From IMG/VR virus record IMGVR_UViG_3300014572_000008: a DNA stretch of 46,407 nt; one strand, given 5' to 3'. The stretch comes from a virus. Made by a program: the position numbers and the translations under genes. Shown one piece after another: positions 1-45,869 of the stretch; positions within the stretch are counted from its first letter, which is position 1; every line of letters starts with the position of its first letter. The notes below the pieces were generated by a model that did no database searches, had not been told where the DNA came from, and saw only the letters and a list, made by a program, of their open reading frames with translations.

Positions 1-87
1 CTAAGTTTTTCTTGACAACTTAGTGAATTGTGTTATTATGAAAGTACCACCTATCATTATTAAACAATCCGATAAGCTGTCCGGGGC
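1..87. repeat. Exact terminal direct repeat, copy 1
   Basis: Bases 1-87 read identically to 46321-46407 by direct comparison. Confidence 0.95.
12..39 (+). promoter_or_regulatory. Sigma-70-type promoter for the rightward lysogeny-side transcript
   Basis: TTGACA (12-17), 16-nt spacer, TGt-TATTAT extended -10 (31-39); same element present again at 46332-46359. Confidence 0.6.
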
Positions 88-125
88 GGTGTTCTTTTCA
101 CGCCTCATAAGCCGAGGCATGAATC

Positions 126-347
126 ATGTGCAAGTCGTTCAGAGAAAGAATCAGGTTGTTTCTCAATCGGAATAAGCGCTACAAGTCCATAGAAGAAAAC
201 GGTCTAAATGTGCTTGTCGAAACCGAAGGCTCGAAAGCACGCACGGAGAAAAGGCGGTTTCTTATCAACATGTTTTTCACCGTCGTATCTGCCGTCGCCG
301 CAGTCGCTGCCGCGATATTTGCCGCCCTTACTTACATCAACTCGTAA
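126..347 (+). CDS. Small C-terminally membrane-anchored protein (hypothetical)
   Basis: ATG with GAGG about 9 nt upstream; hydrophobic tail FFTVVSAVAAVAAAIFAALTYI; first ORF after the 12-39 promoter; competes with antisense ORF 204-449. Confidence 0.45.
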   Translation: MCKSFRERIRLFLNRNKRYKSIEENGLNVLVETEGSKARTEKRRFLINMFFTVVSAVAAVAAAIFAALTYINS

Positions 348-493
348 CGGAAGGCAATGACCGCACGCGCAATGGAACGTACCGAACTGGTCATATCCGC
401 AGTCTGAACCAACAATCTGAAATCCCCATATATACTTGTCTTTCTTCACGCCATCACCTCACTTGTAAGTTCCGCCCTAACGAAACCTAGTAT

Positions 494-514
494 ACACTAA
501 GTTGCTCCTAGTGT
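494..514. promoter_or_regulatory. Operator-like imperfect inverted repeat upstream of the XRE gene
   Basis: ACACTA(494-499)...TAGTGT(509-514); contains CACTAAGTT (495-503), the exact reverse complement of AACTTAGTG at 17-25. Confidence 0.4.
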
Positions 515-570
515 CAATAAAAACTTTGTAATTGCTAGGTGTAAAGTTATACAAAAAGGAGTGTTGCTTT

Positions 571-945
571 GTGGTTAAATCGCCCATAGTCGCACGAATC
601 AACGCCCTGCTTGCTGCAAAAGGTATACCGAAACAGCAGTTTTATAAGGATTGCAGTATTACGTCTGCATCGTACTCTCTATGGAACACAGGGAAAACAA
701 ACCCTTCTATGAAAAATCTTAAAATTATCGCAGAATATCTCGGTGTATCAGTGGCAGACCTGCTGCCGGACGAGGAACTCGTTCCGCAGGAGGGCATAAA
801 AAAAGACCCCATCCCGAAGGATGAGGCCGAAGATAGCGAAACCGCAGAACTCCGTGACATTTGGAGTTCTGCGGATGAAAATGAGCGCCGTGATTTGCTC
901 AAAATGGCGCGTATGCTAAAGAGCCGGAGAAAGCAGAATGGATGA
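571..945 (+). CDS. XRE-family HTH repressor (CI-like candidate)
   Basis: HTH segment QQFYKDCSITSASYSLWNTGKTNPSMKNLKIIAEYLGVSVADLL; GTG 571 preceded by AGGAG (557-561); track ORF starts at in-frame TTG 532; faces the Cro-like gene across the circular junction. Confidence 0.8.
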   Translation: MVKSPIVARINALLAAKGIPKQQFYKDCSITSASYSLWNTGKTNPSMKNLKIIAEYLGVSVADLLPDEELVPQEGIKKDPIPKDEAEDSETAELRDIWSSADENERRDLLKMARMLKSRRKQNG

Positions 946-1327
946 TGCAAGCGACCTTCCGTTTTCGGAAATCGAGTTGAGCAAAGATGAAAGAAAAATG
1001 CTTAAAGCGTTGGCAGATAGCAGAATATTTGCGACGGATGATATTTTCCAGACCGCAAATAGGCTGAAACATTTTGGACTTGCAAATCTGCACCCAATCC
1101 CCAGCAAAGATGGTGTCCCTGTGTTATCGTTTGGCGCGTCCTGCGCAATTGAAATAGAAGAACGCGGGAAGGACTACTTGGCGTATATTGATCAGCGGAA
1201 GAAGTCCACAAAGGCTAGTCGAATCCATGATTTAGTGATTGCAGTAATCTCATTCCTGCTCGGGATGCTTACGTCTGAACATTTCTGGAATTTCCTGAAC
1301 AAATGTCTGTCAGGATCCGAGGGCTAA
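938..1327 (+). CDS. Hypothetical protein with C-terminal TM helix, translationally coupled to the XRE gene
   Basis: 129 aa; ATG overlaps XRE stop (ATGGATGA); helix LVIAVISFLLGMLT near C-terminus; no recognisable domain. Confidence 0.6.
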   Translation: MDDASDLPFSEIELSKDERKMLKALADSRIFATDDIFQTANRLKHFGLANLHPIPSKDGVPVLSFGASCAIEIEERGKDYLAYIDQRKKSTKASRIHDLVIAVISFLLGMLTSEHFWNFLNKCLSGSEG

Positions 1328-1514
1328 AGTCGCTGCAAACTGCTTTAAGCTTTTTTTCGCAGACAAGCACGATGTCGCCGCCTGGGCTGGCCGCGCCGAT
1401 CGCGTGTTCGCACATCCGGCACGCTTCTCCGCACTCATCTTTTGTAGAAATTTCAGTCCTGATTCTGCACAACTGCAGCATAATATTATCGTACTTTTCC
1501 TTGCTCAGAAACAT
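1269..1514 (-). CDS. Small Cys-rich hypothetical protein
   Basis: 81 aa; ATG 1514 preceded by GGAG; several Cys (CGEACRMCEH, VLVCEKK, AVCSD); 5' end overlaps the 54-aa ORF upstream, 3' end converges into 938-1327. Confidence 0.4.
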   Translation of the reverse strand: MFLSKEKYDNIMLQLCRIRTEISTKDECGEACRMCEHAIGAASPGGDIVLVCEKKLKAVCSDFSPRILTDICSGNSRNVQT

Positions 1515-1650
1515 TGTTTCGCTCCTTCCACATTCTAATTAGTTCTAGTTTTTCCTCTGATGTAAGTTCCATTAAATACTGAAAGCCAATATCAGCGGGC
1601 GCAATTTCTTCACCCTTATTATAGCACAGATCACCCTGAACACAAGTCAT
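1486..1650 (-). CDS. Small hypothetical protein (54 aa, below ORF-track cutoff)
   Basis: Hand translation MTCVQGDLCYNKGEEIAPADIGFQYLMELTSEEKLELIRMWKERNNVSEQGKVR; GAAGGAGG RBS about 8 nt before ATG 1650; stop TAA 1486-1488. Confidence 0.45.
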   Translation of the reverse strand: MTCVQGDLCYNKGEEIAPADIGFQYLMELTSEEKLELIRMWKERNNVSEQGKVR

Positions 1651-1777
1651 TTTTGCGTCCTCCTTCTCTAATCTTCCAAATTCCGACGTTTATTTTTGTG
1701 CAGCTTCTATGTTGCGGTGGCTGGTTCTAAGTGGTAATATGTAATTGTTTACAAACCATATAAGGAGTGCCGCATTG

Positions 1778-2623
1778 ATGACTAAAAATGAATATATTGT
1801 GCAGTGCCCAAGATGCGGGGCAGAGTTCCCGGAACGGGAGAAGTTCTGCCCGCACTGTGACACGCCGAACCGGAAGATGATCTGCCGCTCTTGCGGAACG
1901 CAAATCAATGCAAGTGCCCGCGTCTGTCCGGAATGCGGCGCAAGAAACAAAAAGATGATTTCGGTTCAAAAAATCGCGATTCTTTCTGTTCCGTTCGCTG
2001 CCGTTGTGCTGGCAGTTGTCCTTATCGCATCAAAGCCCGCGAAGAAGCCAGCCGAGCCGATCAAGAGGCAGGAGCCGGATACAATCTCCGCATCGGAGTC
2101 GGCAAAGACGGAAGACGACGCACAGACCGAGGAAACGGCAACCACACCGATAACGGCTGAAAAAACATGGGGCAATAAGGTCAAGCTCACGATCCCAGCC
2201 GACTTTATCGGCGAAGATGCGACGCAGCAGGCATTGGACGAAAAGGTAAAGGAAACAGACGGGCTTCTGTCTATAGAGCTGAATCCTGACGGCTCCGCGA
2301 CCTACGTTATGACGGCGGCACGGCACAAAGAGCTTATGCAGGAGCTGGCGCAGAACATTGACGCCCAGCTTGCGGACATGGCCGGTTCCTCTGACTACCC
2401 AAACGTCATTTCCGCCGAAGCGTCCAGCGATTACACGTCCTTTACTGTAACGCTTTCTACTGATGTGGTTGGGCTTCAGGACTCACTCCTTACACTGGCA
2501 TTTTATATGTACGGCGGTATGTACAACGCATTCAACGGAACTCCGGCCGACAACGTGCGTGTGCAGTTTGTAGACCAGGCCGGAAATGTGCTGGAGGAAG
2601 CGAACTCGAGGGACGCACAATAA
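1778..2623 (+). CDS. Double zinc-ribbon membrane protein with large extracytoplasmic domain
   Basis: CPRCG..CPHC and CRSCG..CPECG ribbons, TM helix IAILSVPFAAVVLAVVLIA, about 190 aa beyond the helix; AAGGAG before ATG 1778 (track ORF begins at TTG 1745). Confidence 0.7.
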   Translation: MTKNEYIVQCPRCGAEFPEREKFCPHCDTPNRKMICRSCGTQINASARVCPECGARNKKMISVQKIAILSVPFAAVVLAVVLIASKPAKKPAEPIKRQEPDTISASESAKTEDDAQTEETATTPITAEKTWGNKVKLTIPADFIGEDATQQALDEKVKETDGLLSIELNPDGSATYVMTAARHKELMQELAQNIDAQLADMAGSSDYPNVISAEASSDYTSFTVTLSTDVVGLQDSLLTLAFYMYGGMYNAFNGTPADNVRVQFVDQAGNVLEEANSRDAQ

Positions 2624-2625
2624 AT

Positions 2626-2808
2626 TCAGTGCAGGATTCTCGGTTCCCGCCGATCGTCCTGTTCCCGGCCTACGTCCGCGACGCAGGAAAACAGGAGCGG
2701 AATGCCCCTGATGTAGTCCACGCTGACGCTATGCACGTCTGTCAGCTTCGCACCGTCGACCGTCACGTCGACCCGCCCATTGTTTACCCGGATATTGATG
2801 CACTCCAT
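2626..2808 (-). CDS. Small hypothetical protein (60 aa)
   Basis: MECINIRVNNGRVDVTVDGAKL...; GGAGG 7 nt before ATG 2808; has its own near-consensus promoter; converges on 1778-2623. Confidence 0.55.
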   Translation of the reverse strand: MECINIRVNNGRVDVTVDGAKLTDVHSVSVDYIRGIPLLFSCVADVGREQDDRREPRILH

Positions 2809-2828
2809 ATTTTTTCCTCCTGACATTT

Positions 2829-2856
2829 ATTATAGAACGATTGTTCTAAAAATCAA
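2829..2856 (-). promoter_or_regulatory. Near-consensus promoter with palindromic operator in the spacer
   Basis: Minus strand TTGATT (2856-2851), 16-nt spacer, TATAAT (2834-2829); perfect palindrome TAGAAC-gatt-GTTCTA at 2833-2848. Confidence 0.65.
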
Positions 2857-2936
2857 CATGGCATTATAAACAAACAGACCGCGTTATTTTTGGGAATCAG
2901 GAACCAGATGGTGTACAGGTTATGGGACTGATGATT

Positions 2937-2945
2937 TGATATAAT
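2937..2945 (+). promoter_or_regulatory. Extended -10 promoter candidate (TGaTATAAT)
   Basis: TG at 2937-2938 and TATAAT at 2940-2945; -35 region weak; points toward the 3153 gene. Confidence 0.35.
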
Positions 2946-2958
2946 ATTTGGTTTGACC

Positions 2959-2991
2959 GGCCCCATCGTATCTGGAACATACGGTGGGGCC
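2959..2991 (+). promoter_or_regulatory. Strong leader hairpin
   Basis: GGCCCCATCGTAT / ATACGGTGGGGCC arms (13 bp, one mismatch), 7-nt loop; no T-run after it. Confidence 0.4.
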
Positions 2992-3152
2992 ATTTCAGCA
3001 GATGCCGAATTCAGGAACTATCTGCTACGTTTTCATTGTACCAGATAATGTTTGTAAGAAAAGGGCGAATCCTGCGTTCTTGTCACATGTTTTGCATTTT
3101 TATATGGAAAATGTAAGAAATAAAACTGAAACTTACGAATGGAGGCGTAATC

Positions 3153-3728
3153 ATGTCCGCAATACAGGATCTCGCTCCGTTTATCGGCGCGTATCAGGGG
3201 AAGATCAGAAGGGCAAAAGATGCAAGCGGGATGACGTTGGAGGAGCTGTCGAACGAGTCCGGCGTTTCCTTCTCTGCCGTGAGCCGATTATACGCTGGAA
3301 CACAAGCGGATCCACGGCTTTACAACTCGGCTGCGCTATGCAAAACGCTCGGGTTGTCGCTCGACGAGCTGTTCGGCCTTGAAAATCGCGTCGGAAGCCC
3401 GGAAAAGCTGACCAAGCAGATCCATCACGTCGAGCTTGAAAACGCCAAGCTGGAGGCAGCAACAGCCCTACAGAGCGCGCAGATAAGGTCTACACATACA
3501 ATGTGTTACATTCTCGCCCTATTTTGTTTGCTGCTCTCCTTTACCCTGATTGCCTGCCTTGTAACGGATGCGCAGATTCGGAACGCAGGCCTCATTCGCG
3601 ATGGAGATTTGACCGTAACCGCATGGGCGTGTATCGCCCTGATCGTAGGTTCAGTTCTGGCTTCTGCAATTACTTTCTACGCGATCCGAAAAGAACGTGG
3701 AGGGAAACATGGAGTGCATCAAGTGTAA
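3153..3728 (+). CDS. Membrane-tethered XRE-family HTH protein
   Basis: HTH MTLEELSNESGVSFSAVSRLYAGTQ; coiled segment; two C-terminal TM helices (MCYILALFCLLLSFTLIACLV, AWACIALIVGSVLASAITFYAI); GGAGG 7 nt before ATG; overlaps integrase start. Confidence 0.75.
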   Translation: MSAIQDLAPFIGAYQGKIRRAKDASGMTLEELSNESGVSFSAVSRLYAGTQADPRLYNSAALCKTLGLSLDELFGLENRVGSPEKLTKQIHHVELENAKLEAATALQSAQIRSTHTMCYILALFCLLLSFTLIACLVTDAQIRNAGLIRDGDLTVTAWACIALIVGSVLASAITFYAIRKERGGKHGVHQV

Positions 3729-4812
3729 AAAAGAAATTCCAGACGGCGCGCCCTACTGTTGCTGGTGCGGGAAAAAACAGGAAGCGCGGCGAAACCGGAC
3801 ACGCGGGAACGGGCAAGGAAGCGCTTACCAGCGAGGGAAGACGTGGACGGCGCGTTGGACAGAAAGAACTTACCTAGACGAGAACGACAAGCTTCGGCAA
3901 AAGATGCGAACAAAAGGCGGGTTTACATCAAAGCGCGCCGCCCTCCAATATGCAGCAAACCCTCCGAAGGAAGAGCAGCGAATCCCCACTCTCAGAGAAT
4001 ACTACAAAACATATCTGCGTGGGGATTATCTGTCCTTATCGGCTGATCGTCAGGGAGCGGCGGAAAAGGCTTTCGAGCGCATGAGAGAAATCGCCGACCG
4101 TGAGATAGACGCGCTTACCATCGCGCAGATACAGGATGTTATCGACCGCAACGCCAGCACCTATTACACACGGAAAGATATGAAAACCGTCCTTTCCCAC
4201 TGTTATAACCTCGCAATCGCAGAAAAGCAGACAACCGTGAATCTTGCAAAGTACATAAAGCTTCCGGAATTGGAAGAGAAGTCGCCGGAGCCGTTTACCG
4301 ACGCCGACGTAAAAAAGCTATGGGAAGCGTATGCAAAAGACCACTTCGTTGGGTTTATTTTAACGATGATTTATACCGGCATGATGCCCGGTGAGCTTCT
4401 GAAACTCAAGAAAGATATGATTGACTTTGAAAAGAATGAGATCGTCCGAGGCGGCATAAAGACAAAGAAGCGGAAGGAAACGCCTATGGTCTTCCCGGAT
4501 TTCGTTGCGCCGGTGCTGCATGAACTATGCGAAGAAAGCAAATCGCGCGTCGGAAATATCTGCTGCATAAACAAAGATAATTTTTACAAGAGATATTATG
4601 AGTGTTTGGAGCTTGCCGGAGTGCAAAAGCTACCACCTTACTCATGCCGCCATACAACCGCTACAGCCCTCGCGATGAAAAACATCGACCCGTTTACGAT
4701 CAAGGAAATCATGCGCCACACGAAGATAACGACTACCCAACGGTACGTACACCCGGACATGAAAGGCATGGTCGATGCCGTAAATCAGTTGCAAAACGAC
4801 TCGACAGAGTGA
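3709..4812 (+). CDS. int: Tyrosine recombinase / phage integrase with N-terminal zinc ribbon
   Basis: MECIKCKKEIPDGAPYCCWCG ribbon; C-terminal catalytic region ...CRHTTATALAMKNIDPFTIKEIMRHTKITTTQRYVH (H-x-x-R ... Y); next to attP; track ORF starts at GTG 3697. Confidence 0.9.
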   Translation: MECIKCKKEIPDGAPYCCWCGKKQEARRNRTRGNGQGSAYQRGKTWTARWTERTYLDENDKLRQKMRTKGGFTSKRAALQYAANPPKEEQRIPTLREYYKTYLRGDYLSLSADRQGAAEKAFERMREIADREIDALTIAQIQDVIDRNASTYYTRKDMKTVLSHCYNLAIAEKQTTVNLAKYIKLPELEEKSPEPFTDADVKKLWEAYAKDHFVGFILTMIYTGMMPGELLKLKKDMIDFEKNEIVRGGIKTKKRKETPMVFPDFVAPVLHELCEESKSRVGNICCINKDNFYKRYYECLELAGVQKLPPYSCRHTTATALAMKNIDPFTIKEIMRHTKITTTQRYVHPDMKGMVDAVNQLQNDSTE

Positions 4813-4818
4813 ATTATG

Positions 4819-4839
4819 TATGCTACAAAATATGTTACA
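4819..4839 (+). repeat. Arm-type integrase-site candidates, left arm (2 direct copies)
   Basis: TATGCTACA (4819-4827) and TATGTTACA (4831-4839). Confidence 0.55.
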
Positions 4840-4874
4840 AACGCCAATTTCCCCAGTGTTTTCAATGGGTTTTT

Positions 4875-4939
4875 CTCCCCTGCTAAGGGAGTAGGCGTCT
4901 AAAAAGCGCGCGAGAGTTCAAATCTCTCCTTCCGCGCCA
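4875..4939 (+). tRNA. Partial tRNA-Ser(GCT): 3' fragment only (attP core candidate)
   Basis: Anticodon arm CTCCC-CTGCTAA-GGGAG (4875-4891, anticodon GCT 4882-4884), long variable region, T arm GAGAG-TTCAAAT-CTCTC (4912-4928), acceptor 3' strand CTTCCGC-G-CCA (4929-4939); no matching 5' acceptor/D arm upstream. Confidence 0.7.
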
Positions 4940-4984
4940 AAGTACCGATTTTAGCTGTTTTAAAGCTAAAATCGGTACTTTTTT
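4940..4984 (+). terminator. Rho-independent terminator
   Basis: Perfect 16-bp stem AAGTACCGATTTTAGC / GCTAAAATCGGTACTT, 9-nt loop, followed by T-run. Confidence 0.7.
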
Positions 4985-5046
4985 ATGATTTTCACCCTAT
5001 TTTCTGCGTATTTTCAAAAAGCAAAAAATAACGTTATGACACGCTC

Positions 5047-7895: not shown

Positions 7896-8278
7896 TCCTC
7901 CGTTTCTTTTACCCAGTAATAAAGCGGGATTTCGTTCTCGCTATTCCAGCTGTCATAGATCGTCCCATCCTGCACGCACACTACATGCCCAGAGAGGGCG
8001 AGAATATACGTCCCGCGCGGGTGCTCATCGGCAAACCTGCCGACCGTGTAGCAGTCCGGGCAGGTGTTCGGCATCACGTTCCGGGTAAAACCATGCTGCC
8101 GTAGGTATGCACCCCATACACTGTTTGCGCTCGGCAGATCTCCCATGATGAGTCCTTGCAGGCACAATCCGATATACACCTCGTCCCAGCTCTTCCCGGT
8201 CGCCTTTGCGATGGCCCGGACGGTGCAGTCCCCGACCTTCTGCCCGGCGGGGTTTGGATTAAAATAAGAAAAGCCCAT
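7892..8278 (-). CDS. Putative papain-fold cysteine peptidase-like protein
   Basis: 128 aa from ATG 8278 (AGGAG upstream; track ORF longer); candidate Cys in VGDCTVRAIAKATG and His in LSGHVVCVQDGTIYDSW; fold call is inference. Confidence 0.6.
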   Translation of the reverse strand: MGFSYFNPNPAGQKVGDCTVRAIAKATGKSWDEVYIGLCLQGLIMGDLPSANSVWGAYLRQHGFTRNVMPNTCPDCYTVGRFADEHPRGTYILALSGHVVCVQDGTIYDSWNSENEIPLYYWVKETEE

Positions 8279-8361
8279 ACCGAACACTCCTTTGTGTGTC
8301 CAGTATGGGCCTTTTTGCGGCTTCTTGTGCCTCAGTTGTGTATCAATTTGGTTCAAAATTT

Positions 8362-28952: not shown

Positions 28953-29543
28953 TCACTCCTTGTTTGGTGTCTGCGCAAACTGCGCGTTGAACTGCTGCGC
29001 GTACATTGCGCCCTTGCTCTTTGCCGCCGGTGCGCCGCCCTGGCCGACGGGCTTGACGAATGTGGGCGTGGGCTTATCTGCCTGAAACGCAGTCGGATCT
29101 GCTTCGAGCTGAGCCTTGTGCCACTCGTCGAAGCCGGTCAGCTCGCCGTCTTTCAGTTCAAGGTGTTTCTCCTTGAGGTCTGCAAGGTAAGCTTTCTCGG
29201 CGGCTTTGGAAGAGAACTTGACGCCCTTGGCCGTAATCGCGCGGTTCATGGCGTCGGCGTAGTCCCGGCTTGCCAGCTGCGCCTTGTAATCTTCGGTTTC
29301 CTTGGTGTACCGGCCCTGAAGGTCTTCGAGCTGCTTGCGGACGCTCTCGGCGTCCCCGCTGGACTTCCGCAGGTCTTCGATGTCCTTGTCGCGGTCGGCC
29401 AGCTGCTGCCGGGCGGCGTTCAGGTCTTCCTTGGCCTGGTCCGCTTTTTGCTTCTCCCGGCCGATGTCGCGGCTGTTCTCGTCAAGGATCTTGTCGACGG
29501 TATCCTTATCGAGCCCCAGTCCTTCCAAAAAATCTCGCTTCAT
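28953..29543 (-). CDS. Scaffolding protein (GP20-like)
   Basis: 196 aa, highly charged coiled coil; immediately upstream of decoration and capsid genes. Confidence 0.75.
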   Translation of the reverse strand: MKRDFLEGLGLDKDTVDKILDENSRDIGREKQKADQAKEDLNAARQQLADRDKDIEDLRKSSGDAESVRKQLEDLQGRYTKETEDYKAQLASRDYADAMNRAITAKGVKFSSKAAEKAYLADLKEKHLELKDGELTGFDEWHKAQLEADPTAFQADKPTPTFVKPVGQGGAPAAKSKGAMYAQQFNAQFAQTPNKE

Positions 29544-29629
29544 GGGTTCTCCTTCACAGCTTCGCTTTGTTCTCGCGGGTCGCGTCCGCTGCTGCCCCGT
29601 AGTTTAGCGACTTCGGGCCGGTCAAGATT

Positions 29630-29678
29630 TGATAAAACAAAAAGAGCCAACCTGTAAGAAAACCTTACAGGTTAGCTC
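29630..29678 (-). terminator. Strong rho-independent terminator inside the head module
   Basis: 15-bp stem 29644-29658 / 29664-29678 (perfect on the minus strand with one G-U), 5-nt loop, then TTTTTGTTTT on the minus strand. Confidence 0.8.
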
Positions 29679-29720: not shown

Positions 29721-29849
29721 TTACTTTTTCAGCTCTTCCGCCTTGATGATCTGCGCCTTGACTGTTCCGTCCTTCATGCGCTTCAGCTGGACGCGGAATC
29801 CGGCGGCAAGCGCCCGCTCGATGGCGGCTTTCAGTTTTTCGTCGATCAT
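29721..29849 (-). CDS. Micro-protein (42 aa, below ORF-track cutoff)
   Basis: Hand translation MIDEKLKAAIERALAAGFRVQLKRMKDGTVKAQIIKAEELKK; GAGGA before ATG 29849. Confidence 0.45.
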   Translation of the reverse strand: MIDEKLKAAIERALAAGFRVQLKRMKDGTVKAQIIKAEELKK

Positions 29850-29859
29850 ACGGCGTTCC

Positions 29860-30177
29860 TCACGGGATCAGGTCTACAATGCCCTTCGCGGCATTATAGA
29901 TCCGCTTCATGATCGCGTTCTCCTGCAAGTATTCAAGCCCCTGCAGCGTGATCTGAATCCGGCGCTCATTCCTCAGGTGCATTTCGCCCGTGACGTCGGT
30001 ATAAAGCTCCGCGCCCTTGATAAGCCCCGCGTCCTGAAGCATTTCCAGATACCTGTAGAGACGTTCTCCGGACACCTGCATGGAGTCCAGGCCGAAGCTC
30101 TCCACGCTGAACGCCGGAAGATCCATCGCGCGTTCCAGCGCAGACAGCATTTTATAAATCGCTTTGAAGTTGTCCAT
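29860..30177 (-). CDS. YjcQ-like winged-helix protein
   Basis: 105 aa from ATG 30177 (GGGGGA RBS); MDNFKAIYKMLSALERAMD...YLEMLQDAGLIKG as in the YjcQ family (from memory). Confidence 0.6.
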   Translation of the reverse strand: MDNFKAIYKMLSALERAMDLPAFSVESFGLDSMQVSGERLYRYLEMLQDAGLIKGAELYTDVTGEMHLRNERRIQITLQGLEYLQENAIMKRIYNAAKGIVDLIP

Positions 30178-30289
30178 TTGAATTTCCCCCCTTGCATTTT
30201 TTGTGAGAGTGTGGTATAGAATAGATAAGAGCCGGTCGCTGTCCACGACCCCTTCCCAGAAGGGCGAGATGGTGTGTCGGCTTCTTTTT

Positions 30290-32080
30290 TTATTTTCTTT
30301 TTACGATTCTCTGCACTTTTCCATTTCGGATTTCAATGATCTCATCAACCCACTCAGTATCCTTTCTGGCAAATATTTTTTCAATTTGCGCATCTATTGT
30401 TTTTTCGTCAAGCTTGGTCTTGGTGACATCCAGAATAAACCGCTGCCCCTGCTTGGCTGCCTTTTTCACACGATTGAAAATCGTATTTCCCCCGGCTTTT
30501 TCTCCGAGCGTTTTCAGGTCATACGCTTCCCCTCGGAAAATATAGTCCGGTGTGGACACCCCCTGCGGATTATTGACACGCGGAACTAGCCCAATTTCGC
30601 CGCCGAATTCCTTTTCAAGGAGTCCGGCAATTTCTTTTTCGTGCTCTGTGTGGTCAAGCACGACATTATGCCCGTCGACCTTGTATGTAACGCCGTTTGC
30701 AGTATACTCCTGCAAGTCCTGTACAGTGTGGCTGTTCGGAGTGGCCTCCGCGCGCCACTTTTCCGTTACGTCGGTGTATCTCGGCTGAAAGCCGGCGCTT
30801 TCTGCTGGTTCTGTGTTGGTCGGAGGTTCCACCCGCTCAACCGTTTTCGCTTTGCTGGCCGCAGCCTCGGATTTTGCGTCTGTATACAGAACCCTTGTCC
30901 GCTCCGGCTGCTCTGGCAGTCCTGCTGCCTTGCTGAAATCATGGTATTTCGTGTTCAGGCGGCGCAGCTTGGCTGCTGCGGCGGTCTCCTTGTCCTTTTG
31001 TCCGGATGCTTTATAGGCGTTTTTCAAACGCTTCTGTTTGCGAATCGACCGTTCGAGCCGTCTTTGCATTTGGGTCGCTTCGTACGCGGTATATTTCTTC
31101 CCGTCAAACTCGCAGCCGAGACCATCATCAATGTGTTCCAGCTGCTCCTCGGAATAGGTTGGCTCCATGACGCCCGGGATATAGGCGTGCTTATAGTGTC
31201 GGCAATTTGCGCCGGTCAGGCCGTCTACATAGCCGTAGCCTGTCGTTTCCACAAAATCTTTGTACTGTCCAAGCGGGTCAGGCTCCCCGTTCTCGCTTTT
31301 GTAATAAATGCGCCCCTGCCAATCCTTGTGGCTCGACCACGGGGACGGGCCGGGCTTGTCTCGTGCGCCGGAGTGGGCTGTGATCTCAAAATACCGGGTA
31401 TCCAGATATTCCGCCGACTGGTCGGAATACTTGTCGCAGATTTGCGCCACGCCCGTCATAACGGCCCGGCGGGCGGCCACGTCGATTTGATCTGTGTGTC
31501 CGCTCTCATAGTCTACGACTTTGATTCCGCTTTCTGCCAGCTGCTTGACGGCGTTGGCAATCGCCTGATTATAGCTGATCGCCCCGCTCTGAATTTGCAG
31601 CGTTGACGAATTTAGGGCCCACTGATATGCTTGCGCAGGCGGAAGCATTCTCTGGCCATTGTCCACTAAAAACCCCAAAGATTGCGTCAGATTTCGGAAT
31701 TCTCCGAGCGTCTGCCTGCGGATCGCGTCGATATCGGAGGCGTCTACCAGCCGGTCAGGCTTCGTCACATCGGCCAGCGTAATAAGGTCGTTGTAATATC
31801 GCCGGTTGCGCTCCACAACATCGTCGAGCAGCTTGTTCAGTTTTTCTTCGCTGACGTCCGCTGTCTTCTGGATGGCCCTTTTGATCTTCTTGAGATCAAT
31901 GCCGTGCGACCGCAGCGCCCGGATATCCTGAACCGTTACTTCGTTGAGCTGATCGGCAATTTTAAGCCGGGAACAGACTTCATCCAGCAGCGTATCTTCC
32001 AGCGCACGGAACAGCTCCGCGAGTTCTTCCGGGAGGGCGTCGAGCAGCTCCGGACTGAACGGATACTTGACCTTTCTCAT
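30290..32080 (-). CDS. Minor head (MuF / SPP1 gp7-type) protein fused to a C-terminal PD-(D/E)xK nuclease toxin-like domain
   Basis: 596 aa; N-terminal about 390 aa resemble minor capsid protein 2; Ala/Pro/Glu linker; last about 150 aa carry HEKEIAGLLEKEF - GEIGLVPRV - STPDYIF - GEAYDLKTL; follows the portal gene. Confidence 0.85.
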   Translation of the reverse strand: MRKVKYPFSPELLDALPEELAELFRALEDTLLDEVCSRLKIADQLNEVTVQDIRALRSHGIDLKKIKRAIQKTADVSEEKLNKLLDDVVERNRRYYNDLITLADVTKPDRLVDASDIDAIRRQTLGEFRNLTQSLGFLVDNGQRMLPPAQAYQWALNSSTLQIQSGAISYNQAIANAVKQLAESGIKVVDYESGHTDQIDVAARRAVMTGVAQICDKYSDQSAEYLDTRYFEITAHSGARDKPGPSPWSSHKDWQGRIYYKSENGEPDPLGQYKDFVETTGYGYVDGLTGANCRHYKHAYIPGVMEPTYSEEQLEHIDDGLGCEFDGKKYTAYEATQMQRRLERSIRKQKRLKNAYKASGQKDKETAAAAKLRRLNTKYHDFSKAAGLPEQPERTRVLYTDAKSEAAASKAKTVERVEPPTNTEPAESAGFQPRYTDVTEKWRAEATPNSHTVQDLQEYTANGVTYKVDGHNVVLDHTEHEKEIAGLLEKEFGGEIGLVPRVNNPQGVSTPDYIFRGEAYDLKTLGEKAGGNTIFNRVKKAAKQGQRFILDVTKTKLDEKTIDAQIEKIFARKDTEWVDEIIEIRNGKVQRIVKRK

Positions 32081-33468
32081 TCGACCTCAGCCGGGGCGTT
32101 TGCATCTGTCATGTCCTGCGCCCTCGGCAGCATTGCCTTTGCTGTCGCTTCGTCCTCGCCGTACCACTTTGCGCGGTATTCCCAGTGGTTCAGAATTCCA
32201 TCAGCGAGGTCAAGCCGGTCGTTTGCCCGCTCTTGTTCCTTCTTCTCAGCGTCGTCAAGGACGGAATCGCCCCAACTGTAATCGGCGTTGTACGTCCCGG
32301 CAGGCGCGAGGTTATAGAGTGTTGCGTATGTATCGAGCGCATAGAGCAGGCTGTCAAACGTGTGCTCAAGCGCCGTCTGGATGCTGTCGATCAGCACATA
32401 TTTGCGCTGCTTGCTGTTGCGGATCTCCGTCGCCGTCTTCTCGATGGTCTGCGGGTCGGAAATATCTCCATAAGCCAATCCGACGTTGAACTCGATACGG
32501 CGAAGCGTATTCTGGAAACCTCGGTAGATTGCTTCGTCGCGGATCTGCGGCTCGATGTACTGAAAGAATTCGCCGCTAGGGGAGAACGGTCCCAGTTCAA
32601 ACATACGCTTGTTGAACATATCCGCAGTCGAACTCGTGCCATCCATCAGGACTTTGCGCTCGCTGGAGCGATATTCCCAGCGCAGGCGCTCCCACTGCTC
32701 ATCGGCCTGCTTGATCAGCTGCACAGTAGCCGCGTCTCCGTAGACGGACATTCCGCAGGGGCTGTTTGCGTCCGTTGTGTTGGCCGCAGGCGGGCGGAAG
32801 TACGCGAAGAGCGGCCCGCTCATATCCTGGATCGTGATTTCCGGCTGAATGTCCGCCCATTCCGGGACGGCATTCAGGGGTGCTTCCGCGCCGACCGTGC
32901 CGGAGGCGTCGCTGTAATATGCTTTATTGCGGATCGTATAGGTCGTGCCGTCCAGCTCGTGCGATTCGAGGCGGATATAATACTTCCCGCCCACTTTCGC
33001 GGGCTTGTCCCGGAAGACGCCTCCGATGCAGCGCCCGGCAGGATCAAATTTCGTCGGCTGGAACGCCGCCGCGCCGGTCACGTCGACCAGCAGCTGCTCA
33101 CCGTAGATATACGGCTTAAATGCCACGCCGCCGAGCGCAAGCCCCAGTTCTAAGGCGCTGTGAAAATTCTCTTCCGCCCGCTCAAAGCAGTCTTTCAGAT
33201 AATCCGCACGGGCGCTGCCGGTGATGTTAGCCGTCAGCTCGGCCAGCGTCGGTCGCGCGATCTCCCGGCAGATCGCCGCCGGAAGCCCGACAGCAATGAC
33301 ATCGCACGTCTGCCAGGGTGGATTTCCAATAAACATCGCGTACCAGAGGCTTATATTCTGCTCCATCTTCGGGCTGACTGCCGGAGATACGCCGAATTCC
33401 CGCTCGGCAACCGCCTGCGGGAAAAGCATATTCCGGAACCACCCTCGAATGTTTGTCAAAAGGCTCAT
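32077..33468 (-). CDS. Portal protein (SPP1 gp6-like)
   Basis: 463 aa from ATG 33468 (ATGA overlap with TerL stop); size and position. Confidence 0.85.
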   Translation of the reverse strand: MSLLTNIRGWFRNMLFPQAVAEREFGVSPAVSPKMEQNISLWYAMFIGNPPWQTCDVIAVGLPAAICREIARPTLAELTANITGSARADYLKDCFERAEENFHSALELGLALGGVAFKPYIYGEQLLVDVTGAAAFQPTKFDPAGRCIGGVFRDKPAKVGGKYYIRLESHELDGTTYTIRNKAYYSDASGTVGAEAPLNAVPEWADIQPEITIQDMSGPLFAYFRPPAANTTDANSPCGMSVYGDAATVQLIKQADEQWERLRWEYRSSERKVLMDGTSSTADMFNKRMFELGPFSPSGEFFQYIEPQIRDEAIYRGFQNTLRRIEFNVGLAYGDISDPQTIEKTATEIRNSKQRKYVLIDSIQTALEHTFDSLLYALDTYATLYNLAPAGTYNADYSWGDSVLDDAEKKEQERANDRLDLADGILNHWEYRAKWYGEDEATAKAMLPRAQDMTDANAPAEVE

Positions 33469-34640
33469 TTCTTGATTTCTCTCCTCAAAACGGTCATGCA
33501 GAAATATCGAATCGCGTCCATGCAATGGTCGTTTTCTTTTATCACGCGGTCTTCGCCTGCGTCTTTGTCCCAGCTATAAAGTCCAAATTCCCGAAACGCG
33601 TTTTTGCAACTCTCATGGAATTTGATTATGCCGCTTTTGATGCAGGCCCCCGTGAAACGAATGCCGTCCAGCACGGCGTTGTTTGCTTTCCATGCAGAAA
33701 ACTTTCCGTGCCGCCGGATGCACTCGGCAAAGGACGCTGCCGATGGGTCGAGCACGACACGCTCAATGCGGTATCCGTCCGCGAATGCCTCTAAATCCTG
33801 ATAATATTCTTCGTCAGTCTTCTGCCGCCCGCTCTCGCGCCCGCTGTGGTAATATTCTTTCTCCATGACGGCCTTGCCGCCATATTCCCGCCACAATGCA
33901 AAGACGGTAGGGTTCTGTGTGCCGTAGTCCGATGAGATCCAGTACCGCCCCGGCCCGCCCCGCTCACTCGTGACGTTTCTGGCCCGATCAAACATTGGGT
34001 AAACCAGACCCTCGGCGATTCTCCAGAGGCCGAGAATGTAGCGGTCGTAATAAACCGTCCCTTCGTATTCTTTTTTCAGATTTTCTTTAAAAGATTCCGG
34101 CAGGAACGGATTGTCGTCGATCGTGTATGTCTGGCTGAAAATATCCGCGTTGCTATCGAGGAATTTTTTCAGCCAGTGGTCAGGATATTGCGGATTGAAC
34201 GTCCCATCAAAACAGGAGTATTCCTTATCAAGACGGCTTTTTAGCAGTGCGAAGACTTCGTCCGACCAGTCCGCGACCTCGTCGCCGTAGCAATATTTAA
34301 TCGACGCGCCGCGGATCTTTGAAACCTGAGAAACCTTTTCCGCACCGAGGCAATAGCACTTTTCCCCGAAAATCCACGCTGTGTTGTCGCTGGAGATTGT
34401 TCCGACAAGCATATCGCCATACAGGTTCCGCATCGGCTCCAGCACATTTCGCTCAATCGTGGATTTTGTTACGCCGAGAATGACGGCCAGACCATCTTTT
34501 CCGATTCGCTCACGAATCCGGATCGGTATGATCCATCGAAAATCGAGGTAAGTCTTCCCACTTCTGGTGGCTCCGCCCTTGAAGTTCCATCGATGCGTCC
34601 CGTATTTTACAAATTCACGTTGTTTCGGACTTAACAGCAT
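33465..34640 (-). CDS. terL: Terminase large subunit (PBSX-type)
   Basis: 391 aa; Walker A GGATRSGKTY, ...YGDEVADW..., C-terminal nuclease region with DHCMDAIRY. Confidence 0.95.
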   Translation of the reverse strand: MLLSPKQREFVKYGTHRWNFKGGATRSGKTYLDFRWIIPIRIRERIGKDGLAVILGVTKSTIERNVLEPMRNLYGDMLVGTISSDNTAWIFGEKCYCLGAEKVSQVSKIRGASIKYCYGDEVADWSDEVFALLKSRLDKEYSCFDGTFNPQYPDHWLKKFLDSNADIFSQTYTIDDNPFLPESFKENLKKEYEGTVYYDRYILGLWRIAEGLVYPMFDRARNVTSERGGPGRYWISSDYGTQNPTVFALWREYGGKAVMEKEYYHSGRESGRQKTDEEYYQDLEAFADGYRIERVVLDPSAASFAECIRRHGKFSAWKANNAVLDGIRFTGACIKSGIIKFHESCKNAFREFGLYSWDKDAGEDRVIKENDHCMDAIRYFCMTVLRREIKK

Positions 34641-45458: not shown

Positions 45459-45869
45459 TCATGGCCTTACCTCAACATCGACCGGGAATTCCGTGTGGAA
45501 GTACATCTTGTAGTGGTACGGGTCTGTGTGCGTCCCGGAAATGTCCTCTACCACGTAGAGGGTGTAGCCGTTCAAGTATATGTAATTCTTCTTGTACTCG
45601 CCGGGGCCAACCTTGCAGGTCACGACGAGCTCACTGCTTCCGTTGTTGGAAATGCTCATGTAACCCTCGGCCTCGAGGATGATCTTGTCTGTCCGGGCGT
45701 TGTATACGGTGATCCGGCGCTCGGCTTCGAAATAATCCGCCTGCTTGCTGATGTTGGCATTGACCTTGTCTGCCTCCGAGCAGCCAGTCAACATGGCCGT
45801 AATCAGCAGTGCCAGCAGAGCCGCCGCAATCAGGGATACGACGGTGGTGGTGGTTTTGGCTTTTCTCAT
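45459..45869 (-). CDS. Lipoprotein (early operon)
   Basis: Signal peptide plus lipobox MRKAKTTTTVVSLIAAALLALLITAMLTGC; AAGGAGGA before ATG. Confidence 0.8.
   Translation of the reverse strand: MRKAKTTTTVVSLIAAALLALLITAMLTGCSEADKVNANISKQADYFEAERRITVYNARTDKIILEAEGYMSISNNGSSELVVTCKVGPGEYKKNYIYLNGYTLYVVEDISGTHTDPYHYKMYFHTEFPVDVEVRP

Follow-up and report, generated by a model that had tools for sequence, protein, structure and literature searches.

A predicted small-RNA gene occupies the immunity slot of a phage MuF2::CdiA_C nuclease cassette and is a candidate RNA antitoxin

What neutralizes a phage-borne nuclease toxin when no immunity gene follows it? This question is raised by a locus at positions 29,860–32,080 of IMG/VR virus record IMGVR_UViG_3300014572_000008, a stretch of 46,407 nt (hereafter, the window) in which the minus-strand gene 30290..32080(-) encodes a 596-residue polymorphic toxin consisting of a MuF2 minor head domain and a C-terminal CdiA_C nuclease (PF06152, PF18451; PHROG 581, minor head protein). 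Like described MuF polymorphic toxins (PMC5576092; Apk2/IapK/Aph1, PMC12226406), the protein has a MuF-superfamily N-terminus (PF06152) encoded after the portal gene in a temperate phage of gut Firmicutes and a variable C-terminus with a shared toxin domain. Small protein immunity open reading frames (ORFs) were found after 89% of MuF toxins by Jamet et al., 2017 (PMC5576092), and IapK/Aph1 immunity has been shown experimentally (PMC12226406). Unlike these toxins, the window gene has no small ORF directly downstream: the 112 nt between its stop codon and the next gene, which encodes a YjcQ-family protein, contain none. Here, we find that this slot, in the window and in most CdiA_C cassettes, holds a conserved and convergent predicted small-RNA gene, whose most likely role, judging from comparative sequence evidence, is that of an RNA antitoxin or immunity element. 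The MuF toxin class is already known; the small-RNA gene was previously uncurated.

Read on the plus strand, the spacer carries a predicted sigma-A-type promoter (30192..30220(+); −35 TTGCAT at 30192–30197, a 17-nt spacer, and an extended −10, TGG+TATAGA, at 30212–30220). A predicted structured RNA of ~65 nt (~30227..30291(+); both ends are predicted) follows, convergent with the toxin gene and composed of three stems (P1, 30227–30235/30277–30286; P2, 30237–30243/30268–30274; P3, 30250–30255/30259–30264, all on the plus strand), and a T-run (30285–30291(+)) overlaps the MuF stop codon (30290–30292). This plus-strand fold has an energy of −25.5 kcal/mol and a z score of −2.41. A reading of the locus made earlier from the letters alone (the sequence-only reading) had described a structured 112-nt spacer with two hairpins inside an outer stem. 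Although that structure has the lowest predicted energy on the toxin-sense strand, its z score of −1.03 is no better than that of shuffled sequences, and the conserved fold lies on the plus strand. We rejected the toxin-sense structure, which also showed one compensatory pair in the seven closest sequences and an unconserved second hairpin.

Spacer DNA is 83–93% identical between lineages, compared to 68–72% for the adjacent nuclease coding DNA. A common layout, with an A-run, a 55–75-nt GC-rich multi-stem structure, a U-rich run, and a conserved 'TATACCA ... AAAATGCAAG' block, spans nuclease identities of 32–100% and both MuF-fused and free-standing genes, and the stem sequences within it are wholly different between groups. 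The block on the toxin strand is explained by the opposite strand, which reads as a promoter with a −35 TTGnnn, a 17-nt spacer, and an extended −10 TGnTATAnn. This TTGnnn-17-TATAnn arrangement occurred in ~77 of 80 distinct loci, with the end of the −10 element a median of 71 nt from the toxin stop; the commonest −10 hexamers were TATAAT (25 loci), TATAAA (15), and TATATA (13). Likewise, the A-run of the toxin strand is the U-tract of an intrinsic terminator on the opposite strand.

Covariation within the stems points to the same strand. On the strand opposite the toxin, the Lachnospiraceae-type alignment has 25 pairs in three stems, with 98.1% of cells paired and compensatory changes at 20 pairs; its covariation score was 0.617, compared to 0.305 in shuffles (0/500) and at most 0.228 when pairing partners were slid. 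The Oscillospiraceae-type alignment, which includes the window, has 14 pairs in P1 and P2 (95% paired, 7 compensatory), and its P3 is always a hairpin, although of lineage-specific sequence. G-U pairs were strongly strand-biased: the Lachnospiraceae-type alignment contained 43 G-U pairs and 11 non-pairs opposite the toxin versus 8 and 46 on the toxin strand, and these numbers were 85 and 16 versus 8 and 93 for the second alignment. This bias, the conserved internal loops, and the compensatory changes in three stems suggest that selection acts on an RNA made from the opposite strand. Over the window spacer, Rfam 15 gave no match at E ≤ 10; matches over locus L110 (related loci are numbered L001 upward) were at chance level only, and in 13 sources none reached the gathering score at the element. 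ARAGORN detected no tRNA-like gene. Thus, our comparisons show that the spacer has the properties of a conserved, strand-specific small-RNA gene with promoter-like and terminator-like flanks.

We searched for this predicted RNA across the nuclease family, of which 96 distinct CdiA_C copies were examined in genomic context. The exact spacer core occurred 42 times in IMG/VR; 39 of these stretches lie 34–68 nt past a CdiA_C stop codon, and the remaining 3 are cut short and come from contigs bearing a CdiA_C domain. Two covariance models were used, R1 (Oscillospiraceae type) and R2 (Lachnospiraceae type), the latter built without the window. The models matched 68 of the 96 CdiA_C loci, with all strong matches on the strand opposite the nuclease gene, and the match overlapped the toxin stop codon in 66 of the 68, with L006 and L143 within ~95 nt. 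R1 and R2 detected each other's groups. In the window, R2 matched 30212–30295(+) with 25 bits (E 2e-4; 3 kb, filters off), compared to 13 bits on the other strand, and across the entire 46 kb this segment was the sole R1 match and the sole R2 match with E < 0.1 (the other R2 match, at 8255–8323, had an E value of 0.45). Elsewhere, R2 produced 14 mirror-strand matches of 25–32 bits at sites where the opposite strand scored 86–102 bits, and L129 had one weak match away from this position. The covariance models gave no match with E < 0.1 in a control set of 39 sibling loci (~261 kb) whose MuF proteins bear other toxin C-termini.

No neighboring protein showed a comparable association. Clustering of all ORFs within 2.5 kb of CdiA_C genes at 102 loci yielded no conserved protein partner, with only structural genes and spurious antisense ORFs recurring, and free-standing chromosomal CdiA_C genes of 160–180 codons keep the RNA but likewise have no conserved protein neighbor in this clustering. 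Among 70 distinct first-downstream ORFs of CdiA_C genes, 4 were YjcQ and 13 were Phage_scaffold, and a Pfam scan of the 70 detected no known immunity family. By contrast, in 12 of 12 sibling loci examined, a C-terminus-specific ORF of 58–101 codons takes up the whole stretch from the MuF stop to YjcQ, in the slot that holds the RNA gene in the window. Thus, the predicted RNA element is shown by its distribution to be specifically linked to CdiA_C, and by the same comparisons the structured spacer is the conserved partner of the nuclease.

Some copies of the element are arranged differently. In L128, the RNA is duplicated in tandem (4468–4565 and 4599–4696, both on the minus strand) behind a PF04233-type MuF::CdiA_C gene. 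An orphan copy without an adjacent CdiA_C gene lies at L135:2846-2940(-), next to ORFs that read by eye, with no domain search, as a JAB/RadC-like gene and as HicB-like and UPF0175-like antitoxin genes; the same locus has a free-standing CdiA_C gene beside HicB-like and UPF0175-like ORFs, again read by eye.

The nuclease itself is of a recognizable type. An AlphaFold model and Foldseek place a PD-(D/E)xK nuclease domain of the CdiA-CT Bp1026b type at residues 435–596 (30293..30778(-)), with the predicted catalytic residues E481, D512, D521, and K523 encoded on the minus strand at 30638–30640, 30545–30547, 30518–30520, and 30512–30514, respectively. Pfam CdiA_C (PF18451) matched residues 510–589 with 63.9 bits (E 1.6e-17), and bit scores for this family were 63.9 and 67.8 against a cut-off of 26.6. 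Searching the PDB with the single nuclease-domain sequence gave nothing useful, and profile and fold searches were therefore needed. We found seventy close homologs of the domain; in an alignment of 30 sequences, E481, D512, D521, L522, K523, and Q544 were invariant or nearly so, and the catalytic residues were invariant or at least 90% conserved. The sole PDB match of the 30-sequence profile was CdiA-CT from B. pseudomallei 1026b (4g6v_A, E 1.5e-3). The AF2 model of residues 435–596 had a predicted local distance difference test score of 96.4 and a predicted template-modeling (TM) score of 0.90, and the sole significant Foldseek match of this model in the PDB was again 4g6v_A (E 6e-5, probability 1.0, TM 0.54/0.65), followed by weak matches to YaeQ, SfsA, and XPF, which we take to be PD-(D/E)xK folds. 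E481 lies on the first long helix of the model, D512 just ahead of a strand, and D521 and K523 on the next strand.

Much of what the sequence-only reading proposed for this region was therefore confirmed. The model and alignment bear out its restriction-endonuclease order of elements (a helix with Glu, a strand, a PD strand, and a DxK strand), its HEKEIA segment holds E481, its PD Asp codon at 30545–30547 is that of D512, and its assignment to the Burkholderia 1026b CdiA-CT type agrees with PF18451 and with both structural searches. Its C-terminal module of ~150 residues is also present, but the model puts the start near residue 435, not 445. By sequence and modeled fold, the module is a CdiA-CT(Bp1026b)-like PD-(D/E)xK nuclease with an intact E481/D512/D521-x-K523 motif. 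The suggestion that the toxin family may be new did not survive: cd13442, the CdiA-2 Bp1026b domain, is named among MuF-fused toxin domains by Jamet et al., 2017 (PMC5576092), and MuF::nuclease fusion is thus not new. NCBIfam gave no family for the nuclease, for YjcQ, or for the 42-residue ORF that follows YjcQ, and PADLOC gave no match for the nuclease domain, its free-standing copies, or YjcQ.

The 1026b toxin is a Mg-dependent tRNase with an E187/D214/D223/K242 active site (PMC9086364). The phage domain shares its Pfam family, has it as the closest solved fold (PDB 4G6V; CdiA-CT, whose protein immunity partner is CdiI), and retains the Glu, the PD Asp, and the second Asp, with a spacing of 9 residues between the two Asp positions in both proteins (D512/D521 and D214/D223). 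By analogy, the target of the phage nuclease may be tRNA. The two domains differ in several respects, however. Their identity is ~19%, and the phage domain carries an additional three-stranded sheet at its N-terminus. A canonical DxK lysine (K523, in D-L-K) is conserved in the phage family and absent from the 1026b toxin, where K242 on a helix is used; at the site that aligns with K242, the window has Ala and the family consensus has Lys. Delivery would be by the phage capsid, by analogy, and not by type V secretion, and no CdiI-like protein gene lies in the slot.

CdiA_C is a large family, with 1347 clusters at 50% identity (E ≤ 1e-3, representative library). Among the 96 distinct copies, 57 are C-terminal MuF fusions in proteins of at least 400 residues, and the domain occurs behind MuF regions of both the PF06152 and the PF04233 type. 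Free-standing CdiA_C genes outside phage head modules were seen at L006:5001-5729, L009:547-1233, L124, L130, and L140; one of the free-standing loci lies near RHS remnants, with the MuF junction sequence kept, and one adjoins FtsK/TcpC/TcpE-type conjugation genes. Downstream of several free-standing genes is an ORF whose UPF0004, Radical_SAM, and TRAM domains presumably mark a MiaB-like protein.

We observed that the nuclease arrived as part of an exchangeable cassette, as the sequence-only reading had surmised. Sibling phages L178, L183, L186, and L190 (~70% DNA identity) align to the window through the portal and MuF genes until 30858–30899, do not align between this breakpoint and the next, and restart at 30177/30178, the YjcQ ATG. 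Because homology breaks at the junction of MuF and the C-terminus and restarts at the YjcQ ATG, the exchanged unit is 30178–~30884 (30178..30884, without strand), comprising the linker, the nuclease domain, and the small-RNA gene. At the border of conserved MuF and variable C-terminus lies the junction motif AAGLPEQPER (residues 385–394; 30899..30928(-)). This motif (AAGLPEQxER) also opens the orphan CdiA_C proteins P0030, P0032, and P0033 and precedes an ADP-ribosyltransferase C-terminus in L001. The expected AT-richness of the module was only partly confirmed by calculation. The drop in GC content is real (0.469 for nuclease DNA versus 0.557 for residues 1–444; 0.507 versus 0.655 at third codon positions) and strongest in the last 76 codons (GC 0.417) and the spacer, and the nuclease/spacer region is the sole stretch between 16.3 and 34.9 kb with a 300-bp GC below 0.45. 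The drop is moderate, however, ranking at the 5th–8th percentile of same-size windows in the 46 kb, and the break falls inside the nuclease domain rather than at the cassette boundary; the linker is GC-rich (0.597).

How might such a cassette work? In the reading to which we give slightly better than even credence, the gene encodes a MuF polymorphic toxin of a temperate phage with a cassette-borne nuclease, and the convergent small RNA is its neutralizing partner. The host phage is a temperate siphophage of gut Oscillospiraceae; it is temperate because the window encodes an integrase (3697–4812) and helix-turn-helix (HTH) repressors. The same locus occurs at 99–100% identity in thirty IMG/VR contigs, and genomic relatives are from Oscillospiraceae, Lachnospiraceae, and Clostridium metagenome-assembled genomes. 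By analogy with SPP1 gp7, the MuF2 domain would place a few copies of the protein in the capsid at the portal, the protein would be ejected with the DNA into the next cell, and the C-terminal nuclease would cut nucleic acid there, perhaps tRNA. The RNA would neutralize the toxin in place of a protein immunity factor, and could do so in two ways. In a type I-like mode, it might pair with the 3′ end of a read-through toxin transcript and thereby silence leaky late transcription in lysogens; because the RNA is predicted to end at the stop codon, this complementarity needs a read-through 3′ untranslated region (UTR). Alternatively, in a type III-like mode, it might act as a decoy that binds the nuclease directly, which would also shield lysogens from the toxin of sibling virions. 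With a constitutive-type promoter of its own, the RNA could be made in lysogens while the late operon is silent.

Each of these options has a counterpart among RNA antitoxins. The type I systems txpA/RatA and bsrG/SR4 of Bacillus subtilis prophage elements have convergent antisense RNAs that overlap the toxin 3′ end, and their toxins are small hydrophobic peptides. As in these systems, the toxin and RNA genes here converge, share a terminator region, and reside in a prophage, and the RNA promoter is predicted to be of a constitutive type; all three convergent elements (promoter, RNA, and terminator) are conserved predictions, and antisense overlap would require a toxin transcript with a read-through 3′ UTR. 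The toxin differs, however, in being a 162-residue nuclease domain within a 596-residue structural fusion and not a small membrane-active peptide. In type III systems of the ToxIN type, the ToxI antitoxins are tandem repeats upstream of the toxin gene, on the same strand, and are processed by the toxin. The cassette resembles these systems in pairing a nuclease toxin with a structured RNA rather than a protein, but its RNA, present once (twice in L128), is encoded 3′ of the toxin gene on the other strand, and the toxin fold is different.

More tentatively, and at somewhat less than an even chance, we propose that CdiA_C cassettes of Clostridia in general, both MuF-fused and chromosomal, rely on a convergent structured RNA where a protein would otherwise confer immunity or act as antitoxin; the boldest version of the proposal has the RNA bind the nuclease directly as a substrate mimic and thereby shield lysogens from toxin that sibling virions inject. 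If true, polymorphic toxins would gain their first RNA 'immunity' partner, and the toxin/RNA-antitoxin architecture would be new; our search of the literature on PF18451 and on RNA antitoxins of polymorphic toxins found no precedent. A large toxin family (the 1347 clusters) systematically lacks a protein immunity gene and carries a covarying, strand-specific small-RNA gene instead. MuF toxins are abundant in gut prophages, and both the protection of the producing population and the purpose of the toxins are standing questions. For these, the RNA gene offers a concrete candidate for RNA-based neutralization, and it would tie polymorphic toxin systems to type I and type III RNA-antitoxin biology.

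Several observations weigh against these proposals. The covariance models matched nothing at 28 of the 96 CdiA_C loci; at least 6 of the 28 are cut by contig ends, and ~15, in two groups, share the promoter and terminator layout but form a simpler hairpin, as judged by eye only. The −35 hexamer of the window, TTGCAT, fits 3 of 6 consensus positions, which is why a generic promoter and terminator scan did not list the plus-strand promoter. The promoter, the transcript ends, and transcription of the RNA are predictions, as is its neutralizing activity, and packaging, ejection, and substrate are argued by analogy with SPP1 gp7 and CdiA-CT 1026b. The substrate may differ from that of the 1026b toxin, because the lysine lies in a canonical DxK motif in the phage family and on a helix (K242) in 1026b. 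A toxin expressed late may need no immunity, because the producing cell lyses. Finally, the motif may already be present, unnamed, in large catalogs of candidate RNAs. One set of such candidates lies upstream of GP20 genes (PMC10690425); because these lie within 25 nt of GP20, they are probably a different element.

The main rival explanation is that the element could be mere transcriptional punctuation, a moron-like bidirectional terminator and promoter that travels with the cassette, with a late toxin that has no neutralizing partner. P1 is flanked by an A-run and a U-run, as in a bidirectional terminator, most MuF::CdiA_C genes leave no room for an immunity ORF, and self-protection might be dispensable under late expression. 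The G-U strand bias, conserved internal loops, and compensatory changes in three stems are, however, unlike those of a generic terminator. The element is also missing from the 39 sibling loci, where other toxin cassettes occupy the same genomic position. Moreover, the RNA is kept with free-standing CdiA_C genes outside phage late operons, where the toxin needs an antidote, and both the orphan copy in L135 and the tandem pair in L128 exist. We therefore regard punctuation alone as unlikely, although it deserves serious consideration.

A second alternative concerns the purpose of the nuclease and can coexist with an RNA partner: the virion nuclease may serve the phage, for example by helping it to take over the host, eliminate competing nucleic acids (DNA or RNA), or counter defenses, instead of inter-bacterial competition. 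A fusion inside the capsid would deliver the nuclease as soon as infection starts. The family is abundant, and more than half of the distinct copies examined (the 57 of 96) are C-terminal MuF fusions. A Tad2-like (anti-Thoeris, PF11195) anti-defense gene lies directly downstream of MuF::CdiA_C in two lineages (L078:4614-5111 and L088:4626-5090). In opposition, the domain has the marks of a polymorphic-toxin cassette (exchangeable C-termini, orphan copies, and a junction motif), and its nearest solved relative is an antibacterial tRNase. A phage-serving role thus seems possible to us, but doubtful.

We consider it highly improbable that the PD-(D/E)xK module is a mobile homing-type DNA endonuclease and the adjacent structured DNA or RNA its mobility apparatus. 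Such a module would fit L001–L005, where a free-standing CdiA_C gene and its RNA lie inside a MuF gene split at residue ~265, the same site as that of a by-eye HNH/AP2-type ORF in L010, and the family does keep the canonical DxK motif of DNA endonucleases. The 57 MuF fusions, however, are in frame behind the toxin junction motif and are not insertions, the L001 insertion also bears an ADP-ribosyltransferase C-terminus and a small ORF, as recombination of toxin cassettes predicts, and the strand bias of the element points to RNA and not to a DNA site.

The proposal of the sequence-only reading, that the YjcQ-like protein or the 42-residue ORF is a non-canonical immunity protein, is largely refuted and scarcely credible: YjcQ is the next ORF downstream, small (105 residues), of unassigned function, and present behind three distant CdiA_C genes (L103, L123, and L141), but it lies outside the exchanged cassette, accounts for only the 4 of 70 first-downstream ORFs, and follows MuF toxins with other C-termini that each have their own small ORF between. 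Both genes are present as that reading had described them, a YjcQ-family winged-helix gene of 105 codons (29860..30177(-); PF09639, E 1e-20) and the 42-codon ORF (29721..29849(-); phrog_29211). Most MuF::CdiA_C genes lack YjcQ, and many run straight into the scaffold gene. We fetched 80 viral loci with YjcQ homologs; among these, the homologs not identical to that of the window (54–73% identity) lie behind MuF proteins without CdiA_C, whose C-termini include Ntox50 (E 1e-13), ADPrib_exo_Tox (E 1.5e-24), Peptidase_C80-like, SprT/metallopeptidase-like, and unknown types. The 42-residue ORF is 83% identical in L183, a phage whose MuF protein bears Ntox50. Because YjcQ is outside the cassette and shared with MuF toxins of other C-termini, it is not the immunity partner, and by these comparisons YjcQ and the 42-residue ORF are conserved phage backbone placed after the immunity slot. 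Two implications follow for annotation: the nearest small ORF downstream of a toxin need not be its immunity gene, and YjcQ is a conserved neighbor of the immunity slot across many MuF toxin types. A search of the PDB with the YjcQ sequence gave no match, and we found nothing relevant on YjcQ in the literature. In the L178–L230 loci and the window, YjcQ-family genes directly follow the toxin-immunity pair of at least six MuF C-terminal types, and the MuF genes upstream of YjcQ, among those seen, are all long, toxin-bearing forms.

Beyond these genes, a terminator-like hairpin (29644..29678(-); 16 pairs and then TTTTTGTTTT) lies between the 42-codon ORF and a GP20-b-like leader (29561..29624(-)), which is directly upstream of the next structural gene, the scaffold gene (Phage_scaffold/GP20; 28953..29543(-)). 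The leader matched the full-length RF03003 model with 22.6 bits compared to a gathering score of 36.2, and GP20-b scores above gathering at the same position in relatives (57.3 bits in L040, 47.8 in L001, and 47.2 in L206); the window element at 29561–29624(-) is thus probably a diverged GP20-b leader. A different RNA, gut-2 (RF02990, 47 bits, above gathering), occurs ~130 nt upstream of the scaffold gene at L178:5434-5481 and L190:4047-4094 and had no match in the window.

The head-protein portion of the toxin gene agrees with the sequence-only reading. The 596-codon gene lies directly 3′ of a portal-sized ORF (32077..33525(-)), the 3′ end of which overlaps the MuF start, and a terminase gene precedes the portal. 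The predicted minor-capsid region of ~390 residues corresponds to Phage_min_cap2, the MuF2 head-incorporation domain (residues 9–382, 30935..32056(-); PF06152, E 2e-84), MuF2 having been defined as PF06152 by Jamet et al., 2017 (PMC5576092), in a superfamily that also takes in PF04233, MuF3, and MuF4, and the Ala/Pro/Glu-rich linker is found as an A/E/P/T-rich stretch C-terminal to this domain.

MuF genes are interrupted in several relatives. In the near-identical phage L010, MuF is split near residue 265 (pieces at 1952–2749 and 3608–4489), and the gap holds an ORF of 229 codons (2803–3492) that reads by eye, from motifs only and with no domain search, as an HNH/AP2-type homing endonuclease; the MuF genes of L037 and L099 are split at the same place. 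L001:4202-7546 (also L002–L005) is a rearranged toxin locus, with the order MuF(1–265)-AGLPEQRER-ADP-ribosyltransferase C-terminus, a 108-codon ORF, a free-standing 175-residue CdiA_C with the RNA, and MuF(270–398) with a further C-terminus of 160 residues. The window MuF is 61% identical to that of L001 over residues 5–265 and 54% identical over residues 270–398. At L022:1647-2710, an insertion of ~1 kb with ORFs of 146 and 208 codons lies between the portal and MuF genes, as it does in the near-identical phages L012, L023, L025, L029–L031, L035, L066, and L068; the 208-residue product resembles by eye an L095 ORF that Pfam assigns to DUF4417. Elsewhere in the window, positions 1–5000 form a low-GC lysogeny region with HTH genes at 532–945 and 3153–3728, a gene for a zinc-ribbon protein at 1745–2623, and the integrase gene, and a Phage_VG64-family gene lies at 45459–45869(-).

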